This document shows, one piece after another, positions 16,755 to 64,000 of a DNA stretch of 64,000 bases; within the stretch, counting starts at the first letter, position 1, and every line of letters begins with the position of its first letter. Source of the DNA: Rhynchopus sp. YZ270_cl-10 (taxonomy: Eukaryota); assembly GCA_964035575.1 (NCBI GenBank), contig OZ037836.1, positions 1,550,001-1,614,000 of the forward strand. The letters run 5' to 3'. The notes beneath the pieces are model-generated. The model had not been told where the DNA came from, did not search any database, and was given only the letters and a program-made list of their open reading frames with translations. A program made the position numbers and the translations under genes.

Positions 16755-16869
16755 TATTGTGTTGTTTTTAATGAATGCTGGAGATGGGGAGGGTAAGGAG
16801 GGTGAGTAGAGGATTAATCGTAAGCTTCTGTCTGCACACTTCATGGGTAACGTTGAGTCTCGCTCTCGT

Positions 16870-17041
16870 TGGTTTGGTTGTGTTATGATCGTTGTATCAA
16901 GTCTCGCTCTAGGCGGTCATGTATGTCAACATACGAAGAGATGGTTTGGTTGTGTTATGATCGTTGTATCAAGTCTCGCTCTAGGCGGTCATGTATGTCA
17001 ACATACGAAGAGATGGTTTGGTTGTGTTATGATCGTTGTAT
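16870..17041. repeat. 72-bp tandem repeat (about 2.4 copies) upstream of the transposase
   Basis: TGGTTTGGTTGTGTTATGATCGTTGTA at 16870, 16942, 17014. Confidence 0.9.
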
Positions 17042-17239
17042 TTTTAGAATCTGGCATCGCGTTCTACTGGGACGCAAGACTTCTGGACCCGAACCACCTG
17101 AAGGCGTCGAATCGTCCCGCAGAAGGAGATCATGAGGTGAAGAAAAAGTTGTCGTACAAGGTCGCTATTTTTGTTTTTGTTTTTGTTTTCGTTTTTGTTT
17201 TTGTTTTTGTTTTCGTTTCGCTTTTTTGAATAGAAGTCG

Positions 17240-17540
17240 AGTTAGTACAGAGGCTCTCCTTAGAAGGCAAAATTAGTCAATAATCCTGATTACCGACAAT
17301 AATCCGGATTATGTGACAAGGTGGATTACTTGTGTTTTGGTGGGAAAAAACCGCAAAAACGCATCTTAGACGCCCAGAAAGGCTCAAAACTGCCCAATTC
17401 TAGCTGGAATTGCAAAATTGGACACTTTTGGGGTGTGACCAAAAAAAAATTTGAGAGTCTAGTTATTACAGAGGCTCACCTTAGAAAATAGTCAATAATC
17501 CTGATTACCGACAATAATCCGGATTATGTGACAAGGTGGA
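17240..17540. repeat. Two direct repeats of about 85 bp containing palindrome ATAATCCGGATTAT
   Basis: TAGTCAATAATCCTGATTACCGACAATAATCCGGATTATGTGACAAGGTGGA occurs twice. Confidence 0.85.
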
Positions 17541-17749
17541 CTGTTGTGGCAAAACACTATTTAAAGTTAACGTGCGGAGGGTGAGGAGGAGGAGTGAGGA
17601 GGAAAAGTTGCATACCATACGTTGCTCATTTCACTACCAGGACTCGTCGTCGCGAATAGCCTATACGTGCCCTAAACAGAACGCAAAAACGACGACCGCC
17701 GGGCTCTGTGACCCAAGAGCCCCCAGCTTGCCCAATAAATAAGTGCAGG

Positions 17750-17965
17750 GTTGCCCTAAAAAAGTTCAGACTTGCCCTAAAAAAGTTCAGACTTGCCCTA
17801 AAAAAGTTCAGACTTGCCCTAAAAAAAGTGTTTGCCCTAAAAATAAGTTCAGACTTGCCCGAAATAAGTTCAGACTTGCCCTAAAAACACTTTTAGGGCA
17901 AGTCTGAACTTATTTCGGGCAAGTCTGAACTTTTTCAAAATAGGGTAGGGTAAATCTGACTATTT

Positions 17966-17968
<3 letters not shown>
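17750..17968. repeat. MULE right TIR
   Basis: Reverse complement of left TIR with unit-number differences. Confidence 0.9.
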
Positions 17969-26093: not shown

Positions 26094-26959
26094 GGACACC
26101 AAGCACCAACCCGCTTTTGGTTGCAGTACAGAAGACGAACACCGCAACAACCGCAGACACAACACCGTCAGAACCGACTGTACCACACAACGTTTCGACG
26201 GCGACCCTACCGTCTGTTGCAGCGCCCTCCACCTCCACCTCATCATCCTCTTCACCAACGAACCCCGTCCACACCGCACCAGTCAGTGCATCTCTTTGCC
26301 CCGCAGGCCCAGGGGAGGAGGAAGCTTTTGACGATGTATCTGATATGAGCGACGATGGCATGACGGTGTCTTCGCATAACGTATTCCAAAGAAAGGCGTT
26401 GGCTGCGAAGGTAGTGTCCGCTGTGGAACGCCACGCAGGCCCTCCCGACGAGAACGGAGAGCAGTGGGTTCCTCTGGAGGTGGTGCTGCACGGCATCGAC
26501 GCAACGAAAGGGGATTTGAAGCTGCTGGCCCCTGGGAGCGAGGATTTTGTTCTGAAGAAGACGCGGAAAGGCTACGTGGTGGCGTTAGGTGCCGAAGCAA
26601 TGATCGCAGCAGCCGAGAGGGCGCTGTGCATCACACCATGCGGCTCTGTCGAGGGCACTGCTGTGTACCCTACAACAATGCGCGTTTGGAAGGCCACGAA
26701 ATCCGCAGGTGGTCTGCGGGCAACACCCCCGCAGAAGTACCTATATCTGTCCCCCCCCGGTGTGGAGGTAGAAGGCGGAGCTGCGGCGCAGGTCTTTATT
26801 TCCGTTGATATTGCGCGGGCTGCTGCCAGTGGTATTGCATTCTTCACCGCACAAACACCGTCCGGCCCAATGCTCCTCACAGAAGGAAGAAAAGGGGTTC
26901 TTAAAGCAAAGTTCTTTTCAAAGGTTGTCGGCCGATCCGGAGAAAGTTTGCAGAAATGA
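26094..26959 (+). pseudogene. 5'-truncated duplicate of the FHA/Tpt1-like gene (lacks FHA)
   Basis: Near-identical to about 22858-23733; homology starts abruptly mid-gene, no native start. Confidence 0.8.
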
Positions 26960-36069: not shown

Positions 36070-36830
36070 ATGTACGTGCACTTCGAGGATTTCAGAGCGA
36101 ATCAGCGCACAGTCGAGGTGGGTGAAGATGACACAGTGGAGGGCTTGCGGCGGAAGGTGGCGACTGCAATGGGGTTGCCTGAAGACAGCTTTTGCATGAG
36201 TTTCGGAGGCGAAGCGATGGGAGAAGGAGCGGACATGACGCAGCTGAGTGCTGGTGACACAATCATCCTCACGAAGACGAAGACGCAGAAGTACGAAGCC
36301 ATTGCAAAGCTTCATGCGTTGGGTGAGAGAAACATCACTGCAGAGAGGTTGGTGGAGGTGGAGGATCCTGAGGTGGCATGTTTGCTTCTGCAGGCGGAGG
36401 TTGCGACTGTCATTCCGTATGGGTTCTTGAGAGAGGCATCGTTAACGCACCTTGATCTGAGTGCTGTGTCCTTTGTGACACAGATTGAAGACAACTTCCT
36501 GGCAGACTGCACCTCGTTGACAAGTATTGACCTATCTGGGTTGAGCAATGTGAAGGTCATTGGCAGTAGCTTTCTTGACGGCTGCGAAGCTTTAACCAAC
36601 CTGGATCTGACACCACTCAACAACGTTACGAGGATTGAGGGTTACTTTCTTTGCAACTGCAACTCTTTAACCACCCTGGATCTTACACCACTCATCAACG
36701 TGACGGTGATTGGCGAGAACTTTCTTGAGAGCTGCAACTCTTTAACCACCCTGGATCTTACACCACTCAACAACGCGACGGTGATTGGCAATGGCTTTCT
36801 TTACGACTGCAACTCGTTAACCACCCTGGA
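36070..36830 (+). pseudogene. Ubl-LRR gene 5, 5' part, interrupted by retrotransposon copy 1
   Basis: Ubl + LRRs ending ...CTCGTTAACCACCCTGGA; continues at 44590. Confidence 0.9.
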
Positions 36831-36960
36831 GGGATACACACAACGTACACAAAAAGAAAGAATATAAACAATGTTTTCGTACATGGTGTCGAAGTCACGT
36901 CCAGCCTCCACGCGGAGTATCCCGGGCAACGATCCGTCACACGGATCGGCCAAGTGGACG
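36831..36960 (+). ncRNA. HDV-like self-cleaving ribozyme (copy 1)
   Basis: P1 GGGATAC/GTATCCC, P2 CGTCCA/TGGACG, P3 GCC/GGA with L3 TCCACGC, P1.1 CC/GG, GCAAC, P4 GATCCGT/ACGGATC, J4/2 GGCCAAG; G1 is the first base of the element. Confidence 0.85.
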
Positions 36961-39735
36961 CCACACCCGCCGGCGCCTGTGTGCTGCAGGTCGTGGAACT
37001 GCTATTGCAGTGACGAGGTGACGGCGGCGGCGGAGCAGGCGCACTGGACTGAGGGGCTACGGCAGCCCGCCTACCCGGGGGCAGGCGGCATGAAGCGCAG
37101 TGCAGGGGAGGAGAGGAAGGATCCCGATGTCTTCATCGGAGTAGTGACGGGCGAGAAGGTGCGGGACACGACGGGGCTGTGTGCGCTGGCGCGTGATGCG
37201 ACGGAGGAGGAACCAGGAACGCACTGGGAAGTAACCCGCCGCCTGGCAAACATCACCAAGGCAGAAGCCGCGTACGAGGGCATCCTGCTCGGGCTTCAAG
37301 GGGTGGCCGACGGGTCGTACCCGAAGGGCACCCACGCGCGCGTGTGGGTCACGCACTTGGTGGTCTGGAGGCAGGTGGCTGAGGGGCACGCCTGCGACTC
37401 GTCGTTGCTGAAGCCGAGGCTGGAGAAGGTGAAGGCGCTGCTGGGCGAGTTGAAGAAGAGGGGGATAAGGGTATCGCTGCAGCACTGCGCGAAGGCGGGG
37501 AAGGGGATGAAGGAGGCAGAGAGCAACGCCCAGCTGGTTGCAGGAGGGGTGTACGCCGCAAGGGGATGCAGGACGGAGACGCTGGCAGCTGCCGTGCAGC
37601 CAGGTGTCAAGGGACACCTGGAAAGATGGGGGTTGCGATGGGAGGAATGTGGGGGCAAGGGGGACTGTCTGTTCCGGTCGGTGGCGTGGTCTGTGGAGCG
37701 GTCCCCGAATGGTCACGCAGGCTTCCGCAGGCTCGCAGTTGAGGTGATGAAGGAGCAGAAGGCACACTACAGCCCATTTGTGGACGAGGGGTGCATTGAT
37801 GCATACCTGGCAGGCATGGCGCAGCTGGGGACATGGGGGGACCATTTGTGTCTCCATGCGATCGCCAAGGTGATGAAGGTCCGCATTGTTGTGCTTGACG
37901 TTGGACCGGAGAACGCGCTACGGGCTACGCTGATCGACGGGCAGTCCGACGGGCAGCTGGCAGAAGGAACTCCGGAGAAGGCTAACCTCACCTTCACGGA
38001 GTCTGACGTAGTCCTGGGGTTCGAGGGGGTACACTACGGTGCTGTGGAATCGGCAGGGTTGAAGGTGGGGGAGGAACTTCTGTGCGCAGTGGGACAACCG
38101 CAACTGCACGTACCGGCTACAGCTGTGAAGGGGAAGAAGAAGGCGACGGCGGTGACCCAGAGCGCAGCGGAGGATGCACTGAACCTGGCGCCCCAGGGAT
38201 GGAAAATACCGGTGTGGGATGCAGTGCCCAGCAATGTGGAAGGGGTGACGCAGGTGGCGGCAGTTGCGTGGAAGGCGAGCGAACTTCTGCAGGGGTTACA
38301 GTTGCTGCACCAACTTCCGCAGATGGTGATTGTGTCCCGTTCGAAGTGTACGGGTGCAGCGCGCACGAAGAAGGCGAAGGTGGCGGTGAAGACGGAGCGG
38401 GGAGCAAAGGTGGAAGAAGTGTGGCTGTCGTCCATGACAACTAACTTGGACGACGTGGTGAAGCCGGTGGAGAGCACGTTCTCGAGCAAGCTGATTACGC
38501 TGATGGGCAGAACGATGTTGCTCCAGGGGGAGGGGCGCACAAAGGGAGAGCAACGCATGCGTCGGTGGTACGGGTTGCAGGGGGTGCGGTGTGGACGCGG
38601 CTTGGAGAGAGGAGGATGGATGGAGATGTCTGTGGACGTGACGGAGGACATGGTGTGCGCCATGCTGAGGAGAAGCGGACGGGAAGGGGTGTTTGTGCGG
38701 CACCTCTTCCAGGCAAAGGAGTACGGGGACTGTGGGTTGTTGTGGAAGGCGGAACCGCTGGAGTCTGCTCTGGCACGGCTGGACCTTGTTGAGGAGAACA
38801 TGGAGGATAGCGTGCGCGGACTCGCCGTAGGGGAAGGGGGCTACGCGGTGCGGGTGATGAAGGGGGACTTGGAGGCTGCGAAGAGGCTTCTTGTGCAGGA
38901 GGACGTCGTCGTGCAGGGACACAGGTACGAGATTGGGGGAATTCCGGCGAACACGTCGGTCCAGCTGTTGTGTGAGGGGCTGGTGAGGGAGGCGAGCTGG
39001 ACGGTGAAGGTGCTGTCGCGAGGGCACAAGTGGACGGTTACGTCGGATGTGCCGTGCCCGAGCACAGAAGGGGTGCTGGAGGTGGGTGGATTGGTGTTGA
39101 CGGTGTGTGCGGTGAAGGAAGGGCGTCGTGTGCAGAAGGTGGGTGCGAATCCGTGGGGTTTCCCTCTGGCGCAGTTCCCAGTACCGAGGCAAGGAGCAGC
39201 AGAGAGCGGCGCTGGCACGTGGGCGGCTAAGGCGAGGGGATACGCACCACCTGCAGCTCGACCCCACCCTGCAACAGGGGCACCGGCGGCTCCGGCACCT
39301 CCCGCAGCTTCATCAGCAGCGCAGGACGAGATAGAGATGATGAAGAAGGAGATGAAGGAATTGCGGGAGATGATGAAGGGCGTCATGGAGCAGCAGAAGG
39401 AGATGTTGGAGGCACAGAAGCGGATGATGGGACAGCCGCAGCAGTCGGCACCAGTCGCGCAACCGCCGCAGCCTCTCGACATGGAACAGCTCAGAGCAGA
39501 ATGTGCTGAGATGAAGGAGACGGTGCAGCAGTGCAAGGACCAGAACGTGCAGCTGGCAGCGGAGAGCAAGCGGCTCACGGAGGAGAACGAGGCGCTGAAG
39601 AAGGCAGCTCGCGAGGCCAAGGACAAGGCCAGGGATGCTCAAGATCGTGGCGGTGAGGAGAAGAAGAAAGATACGACGACGGACGAGAACAGCCGCCCCC
39701 GCGACACGGACAATAACCGAGAAAGGTCGTATTAA
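36871..39735 (+). CDS. Retrotransposon ORF1: degenerate RNase H-like domain, OTU-like cysteine protease, C-terminal coiled coil
   Basis: TKAEAAYEGILLGL...THLVVWRQV...LQH (RNase HI-like pattern, acidic residues replaced); GKGDCLFRSVA / WGDH / HYGAV (OTU boxes); true start may be ATG 37090. Confidence 0.8.
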   Translation: MFSYMVSKSRPASTRSIPGNDPSHGSAKWTPHPPAPVCCRSWNCYCSDEVTAAAEQAHWTEGLRQPAYPGAGGMKRSAGEERKDPDVFIGVVTGEKVRDTTGLCALARDATEEEPGTHWEVTRRLANITKAEAAYEGILLGLQGVADGSYPKGTHARVWVTHLVVWRQVAEGHACDSSLLKPRLEKVKALLGELKKRGIRVSLQHCAKAGKGMKEAESNAQLVAGGVYAARGCRTETLAAAVQPGVKGHLERWGLRWEECGGKGDCLFRSVAWSVERSPNGHAGFRRLAVEVMKEQKAHYSPFVDEGCIDAYLAGMAQLGTWGDHLCLHAIAKVMKVRIVVLDVGPENALRATLIDGQSDGQLAEGTPEKANLTFTESDVVLGFEGVHYGAVESAGLKVGEELLCAVGQPQLHVPATAVKGKKKATAVTQSAAEDALNLAPQGWKIPVWDAVPSNVEGVTQVAAVAWKASELLQGLQLLHQLPQMVIVSRSKCTGAARTKKAKVAVKTERGAKVEEVWLSSMTTNLDDVVKPVESTFSSKLITLMGRTMLLQGEGRTKGEQRMRRWYGLQGVRCGRGLERGGWMEMSVDVTEDMVCAMLRRSGREGVFVRHLFQAKEYGDCGLLWKAEPLESALARLDLVEENMEDSVRGLAVGEGGYAVRVMKGDLEAAKRLLVQEDVVVQGHRYEIGGIPANTSVQLLCEGLVREASWTVKVLSRGHKWTVTSDVPCPSTEGVLEVGGLVLTVCAVKEGRRVQKVGANPWGFPLAQFPVPRQGAAESGAGTWAAKARGYAPPAARPHPATGAPAAPAPPAASSAAQDEIEMMKKEMKELREMMKGVMEQQKEMLEAQKRMMGQPQQSAPVAQPPQPLDMEQLRAECAEMKETVQQCKDQNVQLAAESKRLTEENEALKKAAREAKDKARDAQDRGGEEKKKDTTTDENSRPRDTDNNRERSY

Positions 39736-39743
39736 TCACGACC

Positions 39744-42700
39744 GTGGGCCTTGCCCCACTAAAGATAGTGTGCAGCAATGTGACGGCGCTGCAGACAGGC
39801 GGGAGCTCTCTGCTGAAGGTTGCGGAGGATGCTCACGTTGTTCTGGTACAAGAGACAAAGTGCACCGTGACGACGCAGAAGCGCCTCTCCATCGAGTACC
39901 GCGAGCAGGGTTGGCAGGTGGTGTGGGGTAAGGAGTTGCCGGAATGGAGGTCGGCCGAAGAAGCGAAATCTGGTGGTGTTGCGATTCTGGTGCAAGAGGG
40001 AATACCTGTGCTCACGAGCCCGCCCTCCTCAACCTTGGAAAAGAACCTCTGGGACTCAACGCGATGGGTGAAGGCGAAGGTGGCGTACGGCAAAGGCAAC
40101 GAGTGGATCGACGTGACCTCCGTCTACGCGCCGTCGGCGGACCCGGAGGCTAGGGAGAAAATACTTGGCGAGGTGATGGAGGCTGCTGCAGAGCTTGGTG
40201 ATATTCCTGGGGTGATTGGTGGGGATTTCAACGCAGGTCCAGGGAAATCAGGTGTGCTGGCTGCTACACTGGACACAGGATGGTGGAAGGACACTGCCGA
40301 AGAGCACGCAAGGGTGCTTGGGACGACCCCGGACAACACCTACTTCTCGGTGAAAGACGGCAAGGAGATCCGCAAGAGGCTCGATTACGTTCTGCTGAAC
40401 CGAGCTGCGTGCACAGGGCTGTCGTCTGTGAAGGTTGTCCACGACTCTGGGCTCCCGCAGCACAGACCGGTAGAGATAGCGCTGGATGTAGGTGCGTACA
40501 GGCAGATCGTGCTCGCGTACACTCTGCCGAAGCAGTTCCCTTTGGACAAGTGTGGACAAGGCGTGAAGAATGCACAAAAGGCGTTTGCGAGCAAGGAGCT
40601 GCAGTGGGGGGCGCTTCAACACCCTCAGGATAGGTGGATACAGTGGAACAAGTGGGCAGAGGACTTCTTGCTGCAGGCGTGCGAAGGCGAGATTGAGGGC
40701 CCGACGAAGGCGTATTGCGGAAGAGGCAAAACGTTTGACCCGAAGCCGAAGCACCGGACTGCGAAGCAGAGCAAGGAAGGGGACGCTCTGACAGTGAGCC
40801 AGAGAAGGCTGACGAAGAACGTGGGCAGGCTGGAAGAATGTCGGCTGTGGTACGTGAGGAGCAACGGTGGTGTGCCGCCACATGACGTGTGCAATTGTTG
40901 GAGCAAGGCGCGGAAGGAACTGCGTGTTCTGCTGGACGACGACTCACTGCAACAGGATATGCCTAGCGAGGAGGCTTTGGTGGATCTGTGCAGAGCCGTG
41001 CGAGTGAAGGTGTCAACGCTTGCGGACCGAGTGAAGCGGAAGCGACTGGAGGACTGGCGGCAGCGCCTACGGGATGCATGGCACAATGCTCCCAAGGCGA
41101 TCTTCAAATACTGCAAGGACGAACAGTACAGGAAGATGACTGCCCTGAAGAACGAGGATGGGAAGTTCACCGCCAACGCTGAGGAGATGGACACCCTCCT
41201 GCATGAGGCGTGGATGCCGATTCTTCGCCGATATGCGGAAAAGCCAGAGCCCGACTGGGGTGCGTTTAGGGAGAAGTTTACAGAAGACATCGCAGGCAAG
41301 GGGCAAGCGATGCAGATGGACAGGCTGACGGGGAAGGAGTTGCAGCAAACTCTGGGGAGGATGAAGACACAAACTTCTGCTGGGGTGGAGGGTTGGCGCA
41401 TGGTAGAGCTGAAGGCGCTTCCTCTGGTGCTGCTCGACAGGCTGGCAGATGTGTTTGATGCGATTGAGTGTACGGGGGAGTGGCCGCCTTCTTTGATGAG
41501 AGCACTCATTGCGCTCATCCCCAAAGGGGAAGACGACACCCCGCTGAAGCAGCGACCTATCACGATCACTTCGTGTATCTACAGACTGTGGGCGGCAGCG
41601 AGGTTGCGAAGGCTGATAAAGTGGCAGGAAAGCTGGATTGGTGAGCAACAGCACGGCTTCAGAGCAGGACACAGCACTGCACACCTGTACTGGCATCTGT
41701 CGCTCAAGCTGGAGAAGGCGGTACTGTCGGGTGACGACACAGACCAGGTATGGGGCTTCACGATCGACTACGCCAAATGTTTCGATCGTGTACCTCATGA
41801 GATTGTGCTATCGCTGGCGGAGGAGTGGGGCGCGCACTGGCGTATTCTTGGACCACTGAGGGCTGCGTACACTGCCATGGAACGCCGCTTCAAGTTGGGA
41901 GACGTAGGTGTGGGAGGCACCTTTCGTACGACAAATGGTATCCTGCAAGGATGCCCACTTTCTGTCGTGCTGTTGAACGCGCTGATGGCGGTGTGGGGAT
42001 CTGCAGTGACGAGAAGGACCGGAGCAATCGCCATGGGGTACGCTGACGACGTGTATGCTGTGGCGAACACGGAAGCGGAGGTGCATGGTGCTGCGAGGGT
42101 GACGAAGGAGTTTATCACTGCTGCGGACATGGAGGTCAAGGCAGAGAAGTGCGTAGGGTTTACCTCGAAGGAGGGAACAAAGACGAAGTTTGGACTTGGC
42201 GACGGGCTCTTCCCCGACAAGAAGCAGTTCGGGGCGGTTGGAGCAGACATTTTGGCTGGAAAGGGGAACTTCGGGCCCATCGCGCGTGAGCGTGCGGTTA
42301 CTGCGCACCGTGTGTTTACGAGGGTTTCGAGTGTGCCTTTATCCTTCACTGAGAAGGCACTTATTGGCGCAAGGGGACCAATGATGGCAGCGTTGCATGG
42401 GTGCGAAGTGACAGACTTCTCAAAGCAGACCATAGAGACGCTGAGGCAAGGGGCAGCACTGGCAGTCTGGGGGCAGGGCAGGAAGCAGCGCACGCTGAAC
42501 ATTGTGTGGCATGTGTTATCTCCGGTTGGGATTGATGCGCCAGCGGAGATTGTGCAGAGGAGGATGGCGGCCTTTCTCCGACTGACAGAAGATGACGGCA
42601 TGCGGAGAGAAGCAGAAGACGTGTGGAGGCTGGCACATGACCGAAGAGCGGAGCGGGAGGTGAGGCGGCGTGACAGGGCTTCAGATCTGGCACGTCTCCG

Positions 42701-44510
42701 GCGCGAGAACCCTGGGGTTGCCAACCCAAGGGTTACTGAAGTGCACAAGAAGGGTGTGATAGAGTTGTTGTGGGACGACCTGGAGCGATACGGATGGCGG
42801 TGGAGCAGCTTCGACTTCTGGACCACACACATCGGGTTGAGGGTGCACGTTCGTCTGTGGGACAAGGGCAAATGGCTGCATGAGCTGAGAGAGGGCATCC
42901 GTGCACACGCGTACCGCCTGACAGTGACGACGAGGCCGTCGATGCAGGGCATTGAGGGAGGTGTGGATCGCCAGGCGACGAACGCAGTGTGGAAGGACCG
43001 CACGACCGACAGATACCTGGCGGGCGCGATACGCGGAGCCTTGTCGGGCTCTCAGTTGGTGGGGGTGCAGCTGCTGAGGAACAAGGAGGTGGAGACTTCG
43101 TTGTGCCGATACTGTGGTGAGGCGATAGAGGACCGGAGACACGCTTGGTGGTGGTGCCCGCAGTGGGACGAAATTCGTGGAGAGGACATCGGAAAACTCC
43201 GGGTTTTGCTCAAAGACGCACCCCCGTGCTTCTTGGACTTTGGCCTGGTGCCGACGATATTCTTGCAGGAGCTGAGTGTTGCGGAGAGAGAGCAGACGGT
43301 GCGTCGTGTGCAACTGATGCTGGTCAGCATCGCGCTGGCAAGGCAGAAGTACGACGTGGAACATGGGTTTTCGCAGAAGAAGAAGAAGCAAGCGGTGGTG
43401 GGCCAATCCCTTTTTCCTTGGGGCTGGAATCCTCAGGAGGGTGCAGTGCTTGAGAGCTACAACCCGCTGGAGAACGTACTGTGGGGGAGCAAGTACATGA
43501 AGAAGAGTCCACGCTGGACGGAAGACCACTTCTGGGCGCTGAAGGCATGGCTCGCTGCATTGCGTTGGCCTGATGGCACAACGCCCCCCATCACGCAGCT
43601 CGAGCTCATGCTGGACTTTGAGATCTTCTCGGGGTTGGACGTACCGGGTGAGACGGTGTTGAAGAGGGCCGAATCTTTTGGTGCCATGATGCGGACGGCG
43701 AAAACTATGGCGCATGGAAGGGACGTATGGAAAGGAGTGGAGAAGAGGGAGGTGCACCACTTACAGGAACTGGGTGCGGGGATCATGACGGGGTATTCTG
43801 TGCGACCTGTGCTGACGCATGCGGCGGGGGTTGAAGGATACCTGAAGGAGTTGCAGGAGAAGGCGACGTCGCGGAGAGCACTCTCCCGACAAAAGGAAAA
43901 GACGAAGGCGAGGTGGGGTGACGACGCGGATGTGGCTCATACTTCCACTCCGGAAGAACGCTCAGCAAAGAACGAACGCTGGAAGGAAGCGAAGGAAGAG
44001 CAGAAGCAGGCAGAGGAGGTGCGTAGTAGAGCTGCGATAGCTGCAGTTGCGGCAGAGCAGATTCGACGACAGGAGGCACGCAGGCGGCAGACACCGGCTG
44101 TGCGTGTGGACGTAAGGAGGAAGGTGGGGGCCATGCGGGTGTGTGACATACACACCAAGATGCGATGCGGGGACTGCGAGCACAACAACATCTCCATCAC
44201 GGCGTGTTGTGCGACGCACCATTGTGATGAGCTTATTTTGGGTGACTGTGTGGAGGCGCGTGAGGCGTGTGAGGTGCATAACTTCTCGATGTGCGGACAG
44301 TGTGCGGGTGCGGGGAACGTGTCGATGAAGCAGTGCTGTCAGAAGCACCACAACTGTGTGGCCCACGGGAGGGGTGCTTGCGGTGCATGTGTGCAGGCGG
44401 GACGGAAGAGGAAGAAGGACGGATTGCCGATGCTGGCGTCTCCTCAGGCCTGTTGCGGGAAAGGGCACCACGACACGTCCCAGGGGCGTCTCGGGTTTGC
44501 CCCGCGATAA
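39744..44510 (+). CDS. Retrotransposon ORF2: APE endonuclease, reverse transcriptase, CCHC finger, C-terminal Cys/His repeats
   Basis: CSNV, VQET, VYAP, GDFN, LDY, QH (APE); RPI, QHGF, DYAKCFD, QGCPLS, YADD (RT); CRYC-x8-H-x4-C; called start is GTG. Confidence 0.95.
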   Translation: MGLAPLKIVCSNVTALQTGGSSLLKVAEDAHVVLVQETKCTVTTQKRLSIEYREQGWQVVWGKELPEWRSAEEAKSGGVAILVQEGIPVLTSPPSSTLEKNLWDSTRWVKAKVAYGKGNEWIDVTSVYAPSADPEAREKILGEVMEAAAELGDIPGVIGGDFNAGPGKSGVLAATLDTGWWKDTAEEHARVLGTTPDNTYFSVKDGKEIRKRLDYVLLNRAACTGLSSVKVVHDSGLPQHRPVEIALDVGAYRQIVLAYTLPKQFPLDKCGQGVKNAQKAFASKELQWGALQHPQDRWIQWNKWAEDFLLQACEGEIEGPTKAYCGRGKTFDPKPKHRTAKQSKEGDALTVSQRRLTKNVGRLEECRLWYVRSNGGVPPHDVCNCWSKARKELRVLLDDDSLQQDMPSEEALVDLCRAVRVKVSTLADRVKRKRLEDWRQRLRDAWHNAPKAIFKYCKDEQYRKMTALKNEDGKFTANAEEMDTLLHEAWMPILRRYAEKPEPDWGAFREKFTEDIAGKGQAMQMDRLTGKELQQTLGRMKTQTSAGVEGWRMVELKALPLVLLDRLADVFDAIECTGEWPPSLMRALIALIPKGEDDTPLKQRPITITSCIYRLWAAARLRRLIKWQESWIGEQQHGFRAGHSTAHLYWHLSLKLEKAVLSGDDTDQVWGFTIDYAKCFDRVPHEIVLSLAEEWGAHWRILGPLRAAYTAMERRFKLGDVGVGGTFRTTNGILQGCPLSVVLLNALMAVWGSAVTRRTGAIAMGYADDVYAVANTEAEVHGAARVTKEFITAADMEVKAEKCVGFTSKEGTKTKFGLGDGLFPDKKQFGAVGADILAGKGNFGPIARERAVTAHRVFTRVSSVPLSFTEKALIGARGPMMAALHGCEVTDFSKQTIETLRQGAALAVWGQGRKQRTLNIVWHVLSPVGIDAPAEIVQRRMAAFLRLTEDDGMRREAEDVWRLAHDRRAEREVRRRDRASDLARLRRENPGVANPRVTEVHKKGVIELLWDDLERYGWRWSSFDFWTTHIGLRVHVRLWDKGKWLHELREGIRAHAYRLTVTTRPSMQGIEGGVDRQATNAVWKDRTTDRYLAGAIRGALSGSQLVGVQLLRNKEVETSLCRYCGEAIEDRRHAWWWCPQWDEIRGEDIGKLRVLLKDAPPCFLDFGLVPTIFLQELSVAEREQTVRRVQLMLVSIALARQKYDVEHGFSQKKKKQAVVGQSLFPWGWNPQEGAVLESYNPLENVLWGSKYMKKSPRWTEDHFWALKAWLAALRWPDGTTPPITQLELMLDFEIFSGLDVPGETVLKRAESFGAMMRTAKTMAHGRDVWKGVEKREVHHLQELGAGIMTGYSVRPVLTHAAGVEGYLKELQEKATSRRALSRQKEKTKARWGDDADVAHTSTPEERSAKNERWKEAKEEQKQAEEVRSRAAIAAVAAEQIRRQEARRRQTPAVRVDVRRKVGAMRVCDIHTKMRCGDCEHNNISITACCATHHCDELILGDCVEAREACEVHNFSMCGQCAGAGNVSMKQCCQKHHNCVAHGRGACGACVQAGRKRKKDGLPMLASPQACCGKGHHDTSQGRLGFAPR

Positions 44511-44521
44511 CGAAGGTGGTC

Positions 44522-44576
44522 ACGTGGCGCCTTTCTCACCTCTCAGTTCATCTGAGAAGGTGGGGATGGGTCACGT
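44522..44576 (+). other. 3'-UTR stem-loop of the retrotransposon (also 58062-58116)
   Basis: ACGTGGC/GTCACGT outer stem and CACCTCTCAG/CTGAGA(A)GGTG inner stem, followed by CAACAAGTTTAA(T) with no poly(A). Confidence 0.7.
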
Positions 44577-44589
44577 CAACAAGTTTAAT

Positions 44590-45362
44590 CTCGTTAACCA
44601 CCCTGGATCTCACACCACTCAACAACGCGACGGTGATTGGCAATAACTTTCTTTGCTCCTGCGTCTCTTTAGCCACCCTGGATCTGACACCACTCAACCA
44701 CATGACGGTGATTAGCAGTGGCTTTCTTTCCGGCTGCACTTCTCTAACCAACCTGGATCTGACACCACTCAACAACGTTACGAGGATTGAGAGTAACTTT
44801 CTTCACTACTGCCAAGGTTTAACCACCCTGGATCTCACACCACTCAACAACGCGACGGTGATTGGCGATCGCTTTCTTTCCGACTGCAGCTCTTTAACCA
44901 CTCTGGATCTGACACCACTCAACAACATGACGGTGATTAGCAGTAGCTTTCTTTCCGGCTGCAACTCTTTAACCACCCTGGATCTGACACCACTCAACAA
45001 CGTTACGCGGATTGAGCATTACTTTCTTCGCGGCTGTAAATGTTTAACCACCCTGGATCTTACACCACTCAACAACGTGACGGCGATTGGCGATAGCTTT
45101 CTTTGCGACTGCAGCTCTTTAACCACCCTGGATGTGACACCACTCAACAACATTACGAATATTGAGCGTTACTTTCTTTACGGCTGCAACTCTTTAACCA
45201 GCCTGGATCTCACACCACTCCACAACGTGAGGATGAGCAGGTGTGGCAACGCCTTTCTTGCCGGCTGCACCTCTTTAACCACCCTGCATCTGACGCCTGA
45301 ACAACGTGACGGGTGATTGACGATAGCTTTCTTAACGGATGCAACTCTTTAACCACCCTGGA
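44590..45362 (+). pseudogene. Ubl-LRR gene 5, middle part (about 10 LRRs, indels near 45295-45315)
   Basis: LDLTPLNN repeats resume right after the TSD. Confidence 0.85.
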
Positions 45363-48862: not shown

Positions 48863-49215
48863 CTCTATCACACCCTTCTTGTACACTTCTTCTGTTACCC
48901 TTGGGTTGGCAACCCCAGGGTTCTCGCGCCTGAGACGTGCCAGATCTGAAGCCCTGTCACGCCGCCTCACCTCCCGCTCCGCTCTTCGGTCAAGTGCCAG
49001 CCTCCACACTTCTTCTGCTTCTCTCCGCATGCCGTCATCTTCTGTCAGTCGGAGAAAGGCCGCCATCCTCCTCTGCACAATCTCCGCTGGCGCATCAATC
49101 CCAACCGGAGACAACACATGCCACACAATGTTGAGCGTGCGCTGCTTCCTGCCCCGCCCCCAGACTGCTAGTGCTGCCCCTTGCCTCAGCGTCTCAATGG
49201 TCTGCTTTGAAAAGT
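48863..49215 (-). mobile_element. Inverted, diverged internal fragment of retrotransposon ORF2
   Basis: Minus strand encodes WHVLSPVGIDAPAEIVQRRMAAF...NPRVTEEVYKKGVIE, matching about 42415-42765 with substitutions and a codon indel. Confidence 0.9.
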
Positions 49216-49459
49216 GAGTTACTTACTGTGTGGTCCTCGGACACAGCCTCCGTGGCGCTGCTTCAACAGCGACGTCATTGGGGGTGTTCCTCATACACAG
49301 CACAATAACTATGTTTTTGAGCATTTGTTCAGGGTTGAAACCCGGATGCGTCCAATGAAAATCACGTCAGTAGAAAAGTTCGAGAATGTAGGTTTTATTA
49401 TTTTTGTCCACACCCCACCACCACACACAGAGATCAGAACACAAAACAACAGCAAACAA

Positions 49460-50370: not shown

Positions 50371-50500
50371 GGGATACACACAACGTACACAAAAAGAAAG
50401 AATATAAACAATGTTTTCGTACATGGTGTCGAAGTCACGTCCAGCCTCCACGCGGAGTATCCCGGGCAACGATCCGTCACACGGATCGGCCAAGTGGACG
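50371..50500 (+). ncRNA. HDV-like ribozyme (copy 2)
   Basis: Same sequence as 36831-36960. Confidence 0.85.
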
Positions 50501-58371: not shown

Positions 58372-58501
58372 GGGATACACACAACGTACACAAAAAGAAA
58401 GAATATAAACAATGTTTTCGTACATGGTGTCGAAGTCACGTCCAGCCTCCACGCGGAGTATCCCGGGCAACGATCCGTCACACGGATCGGCCAAGTGGAC
58501 G
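58372..58501 (+). ncRNA. HDV-like ribozyme (copy 3)
   Basis: Same sequence as 36831-36960. Confidence 0.85.
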
Positions 58502-61276
58502 CCACACCCGCCGGCGCCTGTGTGCTGCAGGTCGTGGAACTGCTATTGCAGTGACGAGGTGACGGCGGCGGCGGAGCAGGCGCACTGGACTGAGGGGCTA
58601 CGGCAGCCCGCCTACCCGGGGGCAGGCGGCATGAAGCGCAGTGCAGGGGAGGAGAGGAAGGATCCCGATGTCTTCATCGGAGTAGTGACGGGCGAGAAGG
58701 TGCGGGACACGACGGGGCTGTGTGCGCTGGCGCGTGATGCGACGGAGGAGGAACCAGGAACGCACTGGGAAGTAACCCGCCGCCTGGCAAACATCACCAA
58801 GGCAGAAGCCGCGTACGAGGGCATCCTGCTCGGGCTTCAAGGGGTGGCCGACGGGTCGTACCCGAAGGGCACCCACGCGCGCGTGTGGGTCACGCACTTG
58901 GTGGTCTGGAGGCAGGTGGCTGAGGGGCACGCCTGCGACTCGTCGTTGCTGAAGCCGAGGCTGGAGAAGGTGAAGGCGCTGCTGGGCGAGTTGAAGAAGA
59001 GGGGGATAAGGGTATCGCTGCAGCACTGCGCGAAGGCGGGGAAGGGGATGAAGGAGGCAGAGAGCAACGCCCAGCTGGTTGCAGGAGGGGTGTACGCCGC
59101 AAGGGGATGCAGGACGGAGACGCTGGCAGCTGCCGTGCAGCCAGGTGTCAAGGGACACCTGGAAAGATGGGGGTTGCGATGGGAGGAATGTGGGGGCAAG
59201 GGGGACTGTCTGTTCCGGTCGGTGGCGTGGTCTGTGGAGCGGTCCCCGAATGGTCACGCAGGCTTCCGCAGGCTCGCAGTTGAGGTGATGAAGGAGCAGA
59301 AGGCACACTACAGCCCATTTGTGGACGAGGGGTGCATTGATGCATACCTGGCAGGCATGGCGCAGCTGGGGACATGGGGGGACCATTTGTGTCTCCATGC
59401 GATCGCCAAGGTGATGAAGGTCCGCATTGTTGTGCTTGACGTTGGACCGGAGAACGCGCTACGGGCTACGCTGATCGACGGGCAGTCCGACGGGCAGCTG
59501 GCAGAAGGAACTCCGGAGAAGGCTAACCTCACCTTCACGGAGTCTGACGTAGTCCTGGGGTTCGAGGGGGTACACTACGGTGCTGTGGAATCGGCAGGGT
59601 TGAAGGTGGGGGAGGAACTTCTGTGCGCAGTGGGACAACCGCAACTGCACGTACCGGCTACAGCTGTGAAGGGGAAGAAGAAGGCGACGGCGGTGACCCA
59701 GAGCGCAGCGGAGGATGCACTGAACCTGGCGCCCCAGGGATGGAAAATACCGGTGTGGGATGCAGTGCCCAGCAATGTGGAAGGGGTGACGCAGGTGGCG
59801 GCAGTTGCGTGGAAGGCGAGCGAACTTCTGCAGGGGTTACAGTTGCTGCACCAACTTCCGCAGATGGTGATTGTGTCCCGTTCGAAGTGTACGGGTGCAG
59901 CGCGCACGAAGAAGGCGAAGGTGGCGGTGAAGACGGAGCGGGGAGCAAAGGTGGAAGAAGTGTGGCTGTCGTCCATGACAACTAACTTGGACGACGTGGT
60001 GAAGCCGGTGGAGAGCACGTTCTCGAGCAAGCTGATTACGCTGATGGGCAGAACGATGTTGCTCCAGGGGGAGGGGCGCACAAAGGGAGAGCAACGCATG
60101 CGTCGGTGGTACGGGTTGCAGGGGGTGCGGTGTGGACGCGGCTTGGAGAGAGGAGGATGGATGGAGATGTCTGTGGACGTGACGGAGGACATGGTGTGCG
60201 CCATGCTGAGGAGAAGCGGACGGGAAGGGGTGTTTGTGCGGCACCTCTTCCAGGCAAAGGAGTACGGGGACTGTGGGTTGTTGTGGAAGGCGGAACCGCT
60301 GGAGTCTGCTCTGGCACGGCTGGACCTTGTTGAGGAGAACATGGAGGATAGCGTGCGCGGACTCGCCGTAGGGGAAGGGGGCTACGCGGTGCGGGTGATG
60401 AAGGGGGACTTGGAGGCTGCGAAGAGGCTTCTTGTGCAGGAGGACGTCGTCGTGCAGGGACACAGGTACGAGATTGGGGGAATTCCGGCGAACACGTCGG
60501 TCCAGCTGTTGTGTGAGGGGCTGGTGAGGGAGGCGAGCTGGACGGTGAAGGTGCTGTCGCGAGGGCACAAGTGGACGGTTACGTCGGATGTGCCGTGCCC
60601 GAGCACAGAAGGGGTGCTGGAGGTGGGTGGATTGGTGTTGACGGTGTGTGCGGTGAAGGAAGGGCGTCGTGTGCAGAAGGTGGGTGCGAATCCGTGGGGT
60701 TTCCCTCTGGCGCAGTTCCCAGTACCGAGGCAAGGAGCAGCAGAGAGCGGCGCTGGCACGTGGGCGGCTAAGGCGAGGGGATACGCACCACCTGCAGCTC
60801 GACCCCACCCTGCAACAGGGGCACCGGCGGCTCCGGCACCTCCCGCAGCTTCATCAGCAGCGCAGGACGAGATAGAGATGATGAAGAAGGAGATGAAGGA
60901 ATTGCGGGAGATGATGAAGGGCGTCATGGAGCAGCAGAAGGAGATGTTGGAGGCACAGAAGCGGATGATGGGACAGCCGCAGCAGTCGGCACCAGTCGCG
61001 CAACCGCCGCAGCCTCTCGACATGGAACAGCTCAGAGCAGAATGTGCTGAGATGAAGGAGACGGTGCAGCAGTGCAAGGACCAGAACGTGCAGCTGGCAG
61101 CGGAGAGCAAGCGGCTCACGGAGGAGAACGAGGCGCTGAAGAAGGCAGCTCGCGAGGCCAAGGACAAGGCCAGGGATGCTCAAGATCGTGGCGGTGAGGA
61201 GAAGAAGAAAGATACGACGACGGACGAGAACAGCCGCCCCCGCGACACGGACAATAACCGAGAAAGGTCGTATTAA
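58412..61276 (+). CDS. Retrotransposon ORF1 (copy 3)
   Basis: 954 aa, same translation as copy 1. Confidence 0.8.
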   Translation: MFSYMVSKSRPASTRSIPGNDPSHGSAKWTPHPPAPVCCRSWNCYCSDEVTAAAEQAHWTEGLRQPAYPGAGGMKRSAGEERKDPDVFIGVVTGEKVRDTTGLCALARDATEEEPGTHWEVTRRLANITKAEAAYEGILLGLQGVADGSYPKGTHARVWVTHLVVWRQVAEGHACDSSLLKPRLEKVKALLGELKKRGIRVSLQHCAKAGKGMKEAESNAQLVAGGVYAARGCRTETLAAAVQPGVKGHLERWGLRWEECGGKGDCLFRSVAWSVERSPNGHAGFRRLAVEVMKEQKAHYSPFVDEGCIDAYLAGMAQLGTWGDHLCLHAIAKVMKVRIVVLDVGPENALRATLIDGQSDGQLAEGTPEKANLTFTESDVVLGFEGVHYGAVESAGLKVGEELLCAVGQPQLHVPATAVKGKKKATAVTQSAAEDALNLAPQGWKIPVWDAVPSNVEGVTQVAAVAWKASELLQGLQLLHQLPQMVIVSRSKCTGAARTKKAKVAVKTERGAKVEEVWLSSMTTNLDDVVKPVESTFSSKLITLMGRTMLLQGEGRTKGEQRMRRWYGLQGVRCGRGLERGGWMEMSVDVTEDMVCAMLRRSGREGVFVRHLFQAKEYGDCGLLWKAEPLESALARLDLVEENMEDSVRGLAVGEGGYAVRVMKGDLEAAKRLLVQEDVVVQGHRYEIGGIPANTSVQLLCEGLVREASWTVKVLSRGHKWTVTSDVPCPSTEGVLEVGGLVLTVCAVKEGRRVQKVGANPWGFPLAQFPVPRQGAAESGAGTWAAKARGYAPPAARPHPATGAPAAPAPPAASSAAQDEIEMMKKEMKELREMMKGVMEQQKEMLEAQKRMMGQPQQSAPVAQPPQPLDMEQLRAECAEMKETVQQCKDQNVQLAAESKRLTEENEALKKAAREAKDKARDAQDRGGEEKKKDTTTDENSRPRDTDNNRERSY

Positions 61277-61284
61277 TCACGACC

Positions 61285-64000
61285 GTGGGCCTTGCCCCAC
61301 TAAAGATAGTGTGCAGCAATGTGACGGCGCTGCAGACAGGCGGGAGCTCTCTGCTGAAGGTTGCGGAGGATGCTCACGTTGTTCTGGTACAAGAGACAAA
61401 GTGCACCGTGACGACGCAGAAGCGCCTCTCCATCGAGTACCGCGAGCAGGGTTGGCAGGTGGTGTGGGGTAAGGAGTTGCCGGAATGGAGGTCGGCCGAA
61501 GAAGCGAAATCTGGTGGTGTTGCGATTCTGGTGCAAGAGGGAATACCTGTGCTCACGAGCCCGCCCTCCTCAACCTTGGAAAAGAACCTCTGGGACTCAA
61601 CGCGATGGGTGAAGGCGAAGGTGGCGTACGGCAAAGGCAACGAGTGGATCGACGTGACCTCCGTCTACGCGCCGTCGGCGGACCCGGAGGCTAGGGAGAA
61701 AATACTTGGCGAGGTGATGGAGGCTGCTGCAGAGCTTGGTGATATTCCTGGGGTGATTGGTGGGGATTTCAACGCAGGTCCAGGGAAATCAGGTGTGCTG
61801 GCTGCTACACTGGACACAGGATGGTGGAAGGACACTGCCGAAGAGCACGCAAGGGTGCTTGGGACGACCCCGGACAACACCTACTTCTCGGTGAAAGACG
61901 GCAAGGAGATCCGCAAGAGGCTCGATTACGTTCTGCTGAACCGAGCTGCGTGCACAGGGCTGTCGTCTGTGAAGGTTGTCCACGACTCTGGGCTCCCGCA
62001 GCACAGACCGGTAGAGATAGCGCTGGATGTAGGTGCGTACAGGCAGATCGTGCTCGCGTACACTCTGCCGAAGCAGTTCCCTTTGGACAAGTGTGGACAA
62101 GGCGTGAAGAATGCACAAAAGGCGTTTGCGAGCAAGGAGCTGCAGTGGGGGGCGCTTCAACACCCTCAGGATAGGTGGATACAGTGGAACAAGTGGGCAG
62201 AGGACTTCTTGCTGCAGGCGTGCGAAGGCGAGATTGAGGGCCCGACGAAGGCGTATTGCGGAAGAGGCAAAACGTTTGACCCGAAGCCGAAGCACCGGAC
62301 TGCGAAGCAGAGCAAGGAAGGGGACGCTCTGACAGTGAGCCAGAGAAGGCTGACGAAGAACGTGGGCAGGCTGGAAGAATGTCGGCTGTGGTACGTGAGG
62401 AGCAACGGTGGTGTGCCGCCACATGACGTGTGCAATTGTTGGAGCAAGGCGCGGAAGGAACTGCGTGTTCTGCTGGACGACGACTCACTGCAACAGGATA
62501 TGCCTAGCGAGGAGGCTTTGGTGGATCTGTGCAGAGCCGTGCGAGTGAAGGTGTCAACGCTTGCGGACCGAGTGAAGCGGAAGCGACTGGAGGACTGGCG
62601 GCAGCGCCTACGGGATGCATGGCACAATGCTCCCAAGGCGATCTTCAAATACTGCAAGGACGAACAGTACAGGAAGATGACTGCCCTGAAGAACGAGGAT
62701 GGGAAGTTCACCGCCAACGCTGAGGAGATGGACACCCTCCTGCATGAGGCGTGGATGCCGATTCTTCGCCGATATGCGGAAAAGCCAGAGCCCGACTGGG
62801 GTGCGTTTAGGGAGAAGTTTACAGAAGACATCGCAGGCAAGGGGCAAGCGATGCAGATGGACAGGCTGACGGGGAAGGAGTTGCAGCAAACTCTGGGGAG
62901 GATGAAGACACAAACTTCTGCTGGGGTGGAGGGTTGGCGCATGGTAGAGCTGAAGGCGCTTCCTCTGGTGCTGCTCGACAGGCTGGCAGATGTGTTTGAT
63001 GCGATTGAGTGTACGGGGGAGTGGCCGCCTTCTTTGATGAGAGCACTCATTGCGCTCATCCCCAAAGGGGAAGACGACACCCCGCTGAAGCAGCGACCTA
63101 TCACGATCACTTCGTGTATCTACAGACTGTGGGCGGCAGCGAGGTTGCGAAGGCTGATAAAGTGGCAGGAAAGCTGGATTGGTGAGCAACAGCACGGCTT
63201 CAGAGCAGGACACAGCACTGCACACCTGTACTGGCATCTGTCGCTCAAGCTGGAGAAGGCGGTACTGTCGGGTGACGACACAGACCAGGTATGGGGCTTC
63301 ACGATCGACTACGCCAAATGTTTCGATCGTGTACCTCATGAGATTGTGCTATCGCTGGCGGAGGAGTGGGGCGCGCACTGGCGTATTCTTGGACCACTGA
63401 GGGCTGCGTACACTGCCATGGAACGCCGCTTCAAGTTGGGAGACGTAGGTGTGGGAGGCACCTTTCGTACGACAAATGGTATCCTGCAAGGATGCCCACT
63501 TTCTGTCGTGCTGTTGAACGCGCTGATGGCGGTGTGGGGATCTGCAGTGACGAGAAGGACCGGAGCAATCGCCATGGGGTACGCTGACGACGTGTATGCT
63601 GTGGCGAACACGGAAGCGGAGGTGCATGGTGCTGCGAGGGTGACGAAGGAGTTTATCACTGCTGCGGACATGGAGGTCAAGGCAGAGAAGTGCGTAGGGT
63701 TTACCTCGAAGGAGGGAACAAAGACGAAGTTTGGACTTGGCGACGGGCTCTTCCCCGACAAGAAGCAGTTCGGGGCGGTTGGAGCAGACATTTTGGCTGG
63801 AAAGGGGAACTTCGGGCCCATCGCGCGTGAGCGTGCGGTTACTGCGCACCGTGTGTTTACGAGGGTTTCGAGTGTGCCTTTATCCTTCACTGAGAAGGCA
63901 CTTATTGGCGCAAGGGGACCAATGATGGCAGCGTTGCATGGGTGCGAAGTGACAGACTTCTCAAAGCAGACCATAGAGACGCTGAGGCAAGGGGCAGCAC
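61285..64000 (+). CDS. Retrotransposon ORF2 APE-RT (copy 3, truncated by the window edge)
   Basis: Same sequence as 39744 onward, includes YADD. Confidence 0.9.
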   Translation, partial: MGLAPLKIVCSNVTALQTGGSSLLKVAEDAHVVLVQETKCTVTTQKRLSIEYREQGWQVVWGKELPEWRSAEEAKSGGVAILVQEGIPVLTSPPSSTLEKNLWDSTRWVKAKVAYGKGNEWIDVTSVYAPSADPEAREKILGEVMEAAAELGDIPGVIGGDFNAGPGKSGVLAATLDTGWWKDTAEEHARVLGTTPDNTYFSVKDGKEIRKRLDYVLLNRAACTGLSSVKVVHDSGLPQHRPVEIALDVGAYRQIVLAYTLPKQFPLDKCGQGVKNAQKAFASKELQWGALQHPQDRWIQWNKWAEDFLLQACEGEIEGPTKAYCGRGKTFDPKPKHRTAKQSKEGDALTVSQRRLTKNVGRLEECRLWYVRSNGGVPPHDVCNCWSKARKELRVLLDDDSLQQDMPSEEALVDLCRAVRVKVSTLADRVKRKRLEDWRQRLRDAWHNAPKAIFKYCKDEQYRKMTALKNEDGKFTANAEEMDTLLHEAWMPILRRYAEKPEPDWGAFREKFTEDIAGKGQAMQMDRLTGKELQQTLGRMKTQTSAGVEGWRMVELKALPLVLLDRLADVFDAIECTGEWPPSLMRALIALIPKGEDDTPLKQRPITITSCIYRLWAAARLRRLIKWQESWIGEQQHGFRAGHSTAHLYWHLSLKLEKAVLSGDDTDQVWGFTIDYAKCFDRVPHEIVLSLAEEWGAHWRILGPLRAAYTAMERRFKLGDVGVGGTFRTTNGILQGCPLSVVLLNALMAVWGSAVTRRTGAIAMGYADDVYAVANTEAEVHGAARVTKEFITAADMEVKAEKCVGFTSKEGTKTKFGLGDGLFPDKKQFGAVGADILAGKGNFGPIARERAVTAHRVFTRVSSVPLSFTEKALIGARGPMMAALHGCEVTDFSKQTIETLRQGAA

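Follow-up and report, generated by a model that had tools for sequence, protein, structure and literature searches.

The genome of Rhynchopus sp. YZ270_cl-10 contains, on contig OZ037836.1, a retrotransposon whose first 130 nucleotides resemble an HDV-like ribozyme and at the same time include the beginning of its first open reading frame. This locus raises the question whether the element is cut out of a host transcript by a ribozyme located at its very 5' end, and how a catalytic RNA core and a protein reading frame may share one sequence. The analysis was based on a stretch of 64,000 nucleotides surrounding the element (positions 1,550,001 to 1,614,000 of the contig, forward strand), which is referred to as the window and to which all coordinates refer.

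The element is a non-LTR retrotransposon of 7,758 bp with two ORFs and an APE/RT protein. Three copies were detected in the window, together with their target site duplications (TSD) and the interrupted host genes:

36831..44588, plus strand: copy 1, full length, 7,758 bp, no poly(A) tail
36813..36830, plus strand: 5' copy of the TSD of copy 1, 18 bp
44590..44607, plus strand: 3' copy of the TSD of copy 1, preceded by one extra T at 44589
36871..39735, plus strand: ORF1, 954 aa
39717..44510, plus strand: ORF2 frame, -1 relative to ORF1, with a GTG at 39744 and the first ATG at 40176
44511..44588, plus strand: 3' UTR, predicted to form a long stem-loop
50371..58128, plus strand: copy 2, two mismatches to copy 1, inserted in host gene 2, ribozyme at 50371-50500
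50353-70 and 58129-46: TSD of copy 2, 18 bp
58372..64000, plus strand: copy 3, identical to copy 1 over 5,629 bp, ending at the window edge
48863..49224, minus strand: inverted fragment of the RT region, 362 bp, 95% identical, with neither element end
36070..36830, plus strand: 5' part of host gene 1, which resumes at 44608 and has 489 codons without the insertion
from 49460, plus strand: host gene 2, open frame of 378 codons without its insertions

The presence of an APE endonuclease, a non-LTR RT and a TSD together with the lack of LTRs assigns the element to the APE-type non-LTR retrotransposons. ORF2 is predicted to encode the APE endonuclease, the RT and a Cys/His-rich C-terminus; the best PDB match of the RT-family profile was LINE-1 ORF2p (E 2e-44), and the domain search revealed no RNase H in ORF2. 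A search with the RT yielded 75 hits; the named ones, together with the clusters looked up, are diplonemid: Rhynchopus euleeides (whose cluster includes the 51% hit), Diplonema papillatum, D. japonicum, D. ambulator, Lacrimia and Eupelagonema. Several RT relatives carry NPGP motifs of the 2A type before the APE domain. In the element itself the frame of ORF2 opens, at -1 to ORF1, within the final codons of that ORF, and no ATG precedes the APE domain (region 39717-40176). A classic slippery heptamer was not seen at the ORF1/ORF2 overlap, and the expression of ORF2 requires either a non-AUG start or translational coupling.

ORF1 comprises, from its N-terminus, a region overlapping the ribozyme, a Cys motif, a GAGG motif, an RNase HI-like fold, an OTU protease (262-343), whose catalytic Cys and His motifs can be recognized in the sequence, and a coiled coil. 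The AlphaFold model of ORF1, which is of modest confidence (mean pLDDT 56.9), resembles both OTU domains and RNase HI of the archaeal type (E 7e-5). The RNase HI-like fold (approximately aa 87-230, window 37129-37560) is found in an unusual place and is also weakly hinted at by the sequence; its acidic residues appear degenerate by eye. Furthermore, copies of the ORF1 coiled coil (aa 813-923), 52-56% identical to ORF1, are present in three proteins of other kinds (P0140, P0141 and P0144, one of them ankyrin-repeat-like by eye), which suggests that element sequence has been captured by host genes.

All three copies are inserted in sense orientation, at one phase of a 75-bp LRR repeat, into host genes that encode a ubiquitin-like N-terminus and BspA-type LRRs. 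Copy 3 represents a second insertion in host gene 2 with the same 5' junction as copies 1 and 2. The TSD pairs of copies 1 and 2 differ from each other by one base and match within each pair; the two copies therefore originate from separate insertions. Among the LRR sites listed by pattern in the window, insertions occupy 3 of the 21 B-type sites and none of the 27 A-type sites. The original prediction had explained the co-orientation of the copies with host genes by the ribozyme. Since all three full-length 5' junctions lie at one phase of an asymmetric target, the orientation is instead likely to be fixed by sequence-specific insertion.

The host genes are part of a tandem Ubl and BspA-LRR gene family with two repeat subtypes (window 10630-50370). 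An element with a deubiquitinase domain here targets genes with a ubiquitin-like domain. An FHA-domain gene and a partial copy of it are located inside the LRR array (window 21892-23733 and 26345-26959); these FHA genes show a weak match to the Tpt1/KptA RNA 2'-phosphotransferase (E 0.002-0.005). The inverted RT-region fragment at 48863-49224 is unlike an ordinary 5'-truncated copy and is off-target. The window also harbours a MULE transposon (11485-17968) with a 986-aa transposase (13884-16844, minus strand) and long inverted ends made of tandem units of approximately 21 bp, as well as a gene for a WD40 protein (1349-5665) with a long 15-bp-repeat (extensin-like) insert.

The first 130 nucleotides of the element contain a complete HDV-like fold, a nested double pseudoknot in which P1, P2, P3, P1.1 and P4 follow each other in HDV order. 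Its parts in copy 1, all on the plus strand, are as follows:

36831..36960: HDV-like ribozyme, predicted cut between A36830 and G36831
36831-37 and 36917-23: P1, 7 Watson-Crick pairs, first pair G-C
36838..36897: J1/2, 60 nt, AC/A-rich leader
36855-56 and 36859-60: AG dinucleotides of J1/2
36859-77: hairpin in J1/2, with the ORF1 ATG (36871) in its 3' arm
36883: second in-frame ATG, within J1/2
36898-903 and 36955-60: P2
36904-06 and 36914-16: P3, with a G·A mismatch at its base
36907-13: L3
36908-09 and 36924-25: P1.1
36926-29: GCAA between P1.1 and P4
36930-36 and 36942-48: P4, 7 bp with a 5-nt loop
36949-54: J4/2, with the candidate catalytic C36950 and one extra base (G36954) before P2

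Every part of the double pseudoknot put forward in the original prediction was thereby recovered at its place, and so were the variants described with it, i.e. the G-C first pair, the G·A in P3 and the 60-nt J1/2 with its hairpin and the ORF1 ATG. The proposal that the cut site coincides with the element's 5' end was borne out as well, in that the 18-bp TSD sets this end at G36831 independently of the fold; the end set by the TSD is nucleotide 1 of P1 in both copies with two ends in the window. The ribozyme is unchanged in all three copies (starts 36831, 50371 and 58372).

The fold possesses the features of the HDV consensus in L3 (U..CG at 36907-13) and in J4/2, where the catalytic C is followed by N-R-A (C36950-C-A-A). 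The L3 and J4/2 region aligns to RF00094 and RF02682 and is kept in the relatives of ORF1. C36951 was ranked lower as catalytic base; GGGCAAC...GGCNAA fits the Rfam consensus with C36950. The G·A at its base deprives P3 of the canonical three pairs, which lowers the expected activity rather than excluding the membership in the HDV-like ribozymes, because an active R2 ribozyme bears a P3 mismatch (excerpts of PMC3774820) and the codons of the relative P0137 allow a canonical pair. The core is a standard HDV-like core carrying one rare defect.

A sister subfamily of the element shares 36831-36953 and carries the substitutions G36954A and G36960C, both synonymous in ORF1 (P0079), the latter of which leaves the outer P2 pair broken and uncompensated. 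That the subfamilies are 100% identical over 36831-36953 was discounted as a sign of selection; the span includes J1/2. The C-terminal halves of ORF1 are also near-identical between the subfamilies, which suggests recombination. Members number 33 in the cluster of ORF2 and 15 and 6 in the two clusters of ORF1, and are spread over several contigs. Among public contigs, pieces start exactly at 36831 in three of the four runs compared, and some contigs link other LRR flanks to the element start but fall short of the length demanded by the bridging rule; one run (X1) may itself be the source of the window. In the runs X3-X5 contig pieces fork exactly at 36831, with a different base before G1 in some copies or reads, possibly reflecting other targets, non-templated bases or errors.

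A home-made HDV descriptor was applied to both strands after it had been relaxed post hoc to admit the mismatch at the base of P3 and one additional base in J4/2. It detected three matches in the window, each at the start of an element copy. In block-wise dinucleotide shuffles the relaxed descriptor matched 18 loci in 323,584,000 bases, and its chance expectation is approximately 0.007 matches per window. The descriptor check suggested along with the original prediction was successful with the home-made pattern in all three copies, whereas the Rfam search resulted in no match at the gathering score. At E values up to 10, HDV-type families account for three of the five Rfam matches in 36700-37100, located at the place of the ribozyme (RF00094 with 21.1 bits, RF02682 with 19.8 and RF01787 with 16.1; E 0.19-1.2). 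The best of these scores compares with a cut-off of 50 bits; the model failed across the long J1/2 and mispaired P1. The nested minimum free energy is only mildly unusual (z -2.1), which is to be expected of a pseudoknot that nested folding cannot score.

The core motif P3-L3-P1.1-GCAAC, searched as a pattern of 17 fixed bases and one pyrimidine, was detected at at least 152 phage loci. Among the 49 distinct phage matches listed, 48 have the canonical base pair in P3, 34 a perfect P1 led by G1, and 5 the J4/2 sequence GGCCAA. The exact G·A variant pattern had no match in viral contigs, and its 24 matches in prokaryote genomes were judged to be due to chance, the G·A form being without precedent there. 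One phage locus (L104:301-326) contains an HDV-like ribozyme whose P3 has an A·G mismatch at its base and whose J4/2 carries an extra C; it is the closest structural precedent among the matches listed.

The AUG of ORF1 sits in J1/2, as the original prediction had noticed, and the frame crosses the catalytic core. Conservation of this overlap in relatives is added here. ORF1 relatives were identified by protein search (P0143 and P0137) and by cluster look-up (P0290/P0288 of D. papillatum) and share 41, 30 and 27/25% identity with ORF1 (alignment A3). The peptide that the core specifies when read in frame with ORF1 (xP-ASxR/W-xxx-G...A[KNE]-xx) is retained in all of them. The proline of P2 is residue 10-12 in all four lineages, the start lying 9-11 codons before it, and all four have in common the catalytic C (at position 2 of an Ala codon), the downstream A and the extra J4/2 base. 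The P4 spacer comprises 8, 9, 7 and 6 codons, i.e. its length changes in threes.

Covariation of the stems was read from the proteins of the relatives and not from DNA, with the register set by eye from the alignment and any codon choice allowed to pair the stems. In this back-translation each of the three relatives can form P2 with 6/6 Watson-Crick pairs, and P4 reaches 7, 7 and 6 pairs. Using ORF1 sequence as the null, the same pairing was obtained for P2 (proline fixed) in 150 of 3000 draws and for P4 in 18, 32 and 10 of 300; multiplied as independent, these nulls give approximately 3e-8, the kin being not fully independent. One P2 pair that is fixed by the codons (two second codon positions) reads G:C, A:T, T:A and G:C across the four lineages. 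The relatives' codons permit P2 and P4 to be fully paired, yet with stems that differ between the lineages. The last base of P1 is T in P0137 and P0290, and T (U) is by HDV convention the usual wobble partner of G1. Taking into account the canonical P3 permitted by the P0137 codons, both the G-C at the first pair and the G·A in P3 are regarded as lineage variants.

Further downstream, a Cys motif upstream of Met74 is common to the element, P0143 and P0137. A YPGAGG-like motif (window 37072-37089, ORF1 approximately aa 68-73) follows directly on the ribozyme-encoded peptide and is present in all five lineages, in the fifth in a GAGA form; the OTU protease of the element might cut there, or the motif might be a degenerate signal similar to 2A. 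Over the 40 nt preceding ATG 36871 the sequence is AC-rich, as are the host gene leaders, and AG dinucleotides lie 15 and 11 nt upstream of this ATG. No further lineage came from a profile search with ORF1, and an Atlas search gave no match. None of 22 RT-related metagenome loci contained a convincing ribozyme or a detectable ORF1 relative; three weak relaxed-descriptor matches in these loci were attributed to chance, two of them lying inside the RT match, and Rfam detected no HDV family in the 12 of the 22 loci searched. No RT relative was found in viral contigs.

We consider it likely that ORF1 is translated from J1/2 through the ribozyme core. An alternative, which seems unlikely to us, is an active ribozyme in a true 5' UTR, with ORF1 starting from Met74 (37090) or another downstream codon and a passive upstream peptide. 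In favour of this alternative, the RNA core dictates most of the conserved N-terminal residues, the region is predicted to be disordered (pLDDT below 50), and the +1 frame is also open across the core. Gene callers choose several different starts within one cluster, ATG 36871 is situated in a hairpin, and the Met1 of the unnamed ENA proteins may be a GTG/TTG call. Moreover, the ascertainment by protein search favours in-frame relatives; the core motif is missing from the relative P0138, and the starts of most other D. papillatum members lie downstream. However, the frame, the spacing of the start to the P2 proline and the P4 changes in threes are kept at 25-41% identity, the Cys and GAGG motifs are found upstream of Met74 in relatives, and the sister substitutions at 36954 and 36960 are synonymous in ORF1. 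A true 5' UTR would affect only the fourth step of the mechanism proposed below and would be compatible with the promoter function considered thereafter.

The best reading of the locus, which we regard as probable, is that predicted self-cleavage at G36831 releases the element from a host co-transcript as a full-length template, and that ORF1 is read through the core. In the first step the element, which is observed in sense orientation in the Ubl-LRR genes, would be carried in a host or polycistronic pol II transcript. Release from such a co-transcript is plausible, because the copies run in the direction of the host gene and co-transcription of diplonemid genes has been reported (excerpts of PMC10161547). 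In the second step P1/P1.1/P4 and P2/P3 would form, aided by the J1/2 hairpin, and C36950 together with Mg2+ would cut between A36830 and G36831, a position predicted from the HDV family, leaving a 5'-OH RNA that begins with base 1 of the element. In the third step ORF2p would use the cleaved RNA as template in target-primed reverse transcription, in which each full-length copy would keep the ribozyme and staggered nicks would generate the 18-bp TSD. This step corresponds to the general mechanism of non-LTR elements; the TSD itself is observed. In the fourth step ORF1 would be translated from the J1/2 AUG through P2-P3-L3-P1-P4-J4/2-P2, approximately its first 30 residues, and judging from the four lineages the core would be under a double constraint of RNA structure and reading frame. 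In the fifth step translation might be achieved either by cap-independent initiation on the cleaved RNA or by addition of a spliced leader at a J1/2 AG, which would remove the 5' strand of P1 and provide a capped, non-cleaving mRNA. The spliced-leader route is speculative and, in our view, somewhat doubtful.

A more far-reaching version, which we judge to be rather unlikely as a whole, would include a diplonemid-wide LINE clade that has long kept the core as ORF1 coding sequence, with the element homing to the LRR repeats of a family of ubiquitin-like proteins. Its co-transcripts would have two mutually exclusive fates, cleavage at G1 to a 5'-OH retrotransposition template or spliced-leader addition at a J1/2 AG to a disarmed capped mRNA, and the OTU protease may clip the ribozyme-encoded peptide at the conserved Gly-Gly.

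Self-cleavage had also been offered as the explanation of the identical 5' ends. In R2, exact-end cleavage goes along with variable 5' junctions (excerpts of PMC3774820), and self-cleavage alone is thus no guarantee of identical junctions. The identical 5' junctions of all three copies fit a fixed transcription start equally well, as would be expected if the first approximately 130 nt were a promoter starting at G36831, with the ribozyme as a backup for read-through, similar to Pr77 of L1Tc. Indeed, L1Tc of the kinetoplastids, the sister group, combines both functions in one stretch of 77 nt (excerpts of PMC3383444). Such a dual promoter-ribozyme is nevertheless improbable here, since all full-length copies observed are in sense orientation in host genes and a promoter is not needed.

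For self-cleavage as in the preferred reading, activity of the ribozyme of copy 1 is predicted with good confidence. In nested folding, which ignores pseudoknots, P4 has a probability of 0.99, and P1 has 0.84 without a leader and 0.04 with 51 nt of host leader. An alternative helix (36925-27/36949-51) that hides the catalytic C reaches 0.81-0.97 in the same kind of folding. The G·A in P3, the helix hiding the catalytic C and the competition by the host leader could render the cleavage slow or context-dependent. A helix in a long J1/2 has been described to strongly speed HDV-like ribozymes (in the excerpted text of PMC4908430), so the J1/2 hairpin may be of help here, and the theta descriptor permits an extra last position of J4/2 (excerpts of PMC10879173).

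The mismatch, the C-hiding helix and the leader competition could also be taken to indicate an attenuated or inactive fold that acts as a 5' shield or as an ORF2p-binding element, the 5' ends being made otherwise and catalysis perhaps having been eroded by coding. Certain well-folded SIDER ribozymes are inactive (excerpts of PMC4035085), and the R2 ribozyme structure can protect RNA without cleaving it (excerpts of PMC11331408). Taking into account, however, that the catalytic C and the downstream A are kept in four lineages, that P1 begins exactly at the junction and that the near-identical copies suggest recent activity, such an attenuated or inactive fold appears improbable. Chance resemblance to the HDV fold, in line with the lack of Rfam matches at the gathering score and the relaxation of the descriptor after the sequence had been seen, is practically refuted by the low expectation per window of a match that nevertheless starts on the junction base and by the covariation in relatives. 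The HDV-like fold is thus virtually certain to be real, and an HDV-like ribozyme with its predicted cut site at the element 5' end is supported by the TSD junction, the shuffles, the phage comparators and the covariation.

While retrotransposons with a 5' HDV-like ribozyme are already known, what is new within the literature searched is that the ribozyme core probably also serves as coding sequence, and this in an element that inserts into protein-coding repeats. The conserved overlap of a catalytic RNA core and a protein frame would provide a natural case of one sequence with two codes. It would also offer a compact test of how an uncapped, ribozyme-ended LINE RNA is translated in a host that gives nearly all mRNAs a spliced leader, and the D. 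papillatum relative provides a cultured and sequenced host for this question. The peptide read-out may serve as a protein-level route to further ribozymes. The known target classes are extended by an APE element that has an 18-bp TSD and inserts at one phase of a protein-coding repeat; such an element could drive the turnover of an LRR gene family. In the literature searched we found no report of an HDV-like ribozyme in Diplonema, of an OTU domain in a non-LTR ORF1 or of HDV-like ribozymes within coding regions; Ruminski 2011, which is said to deal with translation initiation by such ribozymes, could describe an overlap. The excerpts of PMC3774820, PMC4035085, PMC3383444, PMC6765202 and PMC10879173 place retrotransposon HDV-like ribozymes in 5' UTRs and name RNA genes, transposons and simple repeats as targets; PMC10161547, PMC4908430, PMC12222951, PMC11331408 and PMC4640811 belong, in excerpt, to the same set for this placement and these target classes.

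Compared with known systems, the element resembles L1TcRz/Pr77 in having an HDV-like ribozyme at +1 of an APE-type euglenozoan element with an exact cut at the 5' end (excerpts of PMC3383444 and PMC4035085), in its TSDs and in the release from polycistronic RNA, which is predicted here. However, L1TcRz is a 77-nt 5' UTR signature that begins with C1, whereas the ribozyme described here comprises 130 nt and starts with G. L1Tc encodes an APE-RT-RNase H protein and inserts with low specificity (excerpts of PMC6765202), in contrast to two ORFs and insertion at one phase of a coding repeat. Furthermore, in the Rhynchopus element the RNase H-like fold and the OTU are encoded by ORF1, J1/2 has 60 nt and ORF1 overlaps the core. 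Lacking the APE-RT-RNase H architecture and the Pr77 signature, the latter compared by description, the element does not show the features of the L1Tc/ingi group; the 75 RT hits, many of which are unnamed, include no protein named as L1Tc or ingi.

With R2 the element shares the site-specific insertion, the 5' HDV-like ribozyme, the release from a host co-transcript, which is predicted here, the long J1/2 and the tolerance of irregularities in P2/P3 (excerpts of PMC3774820). R2, however, has a restriction-like endonuclease and one ORF and resides in 28S rDNA under pol I, and its ribozyme, which is assigned to the 5' UTR, often has its cut site upstream in the target (same source). The APE at the N-terminus of ORF2, the two ORFs and the LRR protein-coding target set the element apart from R2.

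The phage minimal HDV-like or theta ribozymes (excerpts of PMC10879173; RF02682) have an identical P3-L3-P1.1-GCAAC core, but they possess a very short J1/2 and are expected outside coding regions, PMC10879173 treating intragenic matches as likely false positives. Sequence-specific APE insertion into multicopy DNA is, by description, a feature shared with the Tx1 and R1 clades (excerpts of PMC4640811). NeSL/Utopia likewise are non-LTR elements with a protease for ubiquitin-like proteins, Ulp1 (same excerpts), whereas the protease of the Rhynchopus element is an OTU encoded in ORF1 of an APE element.
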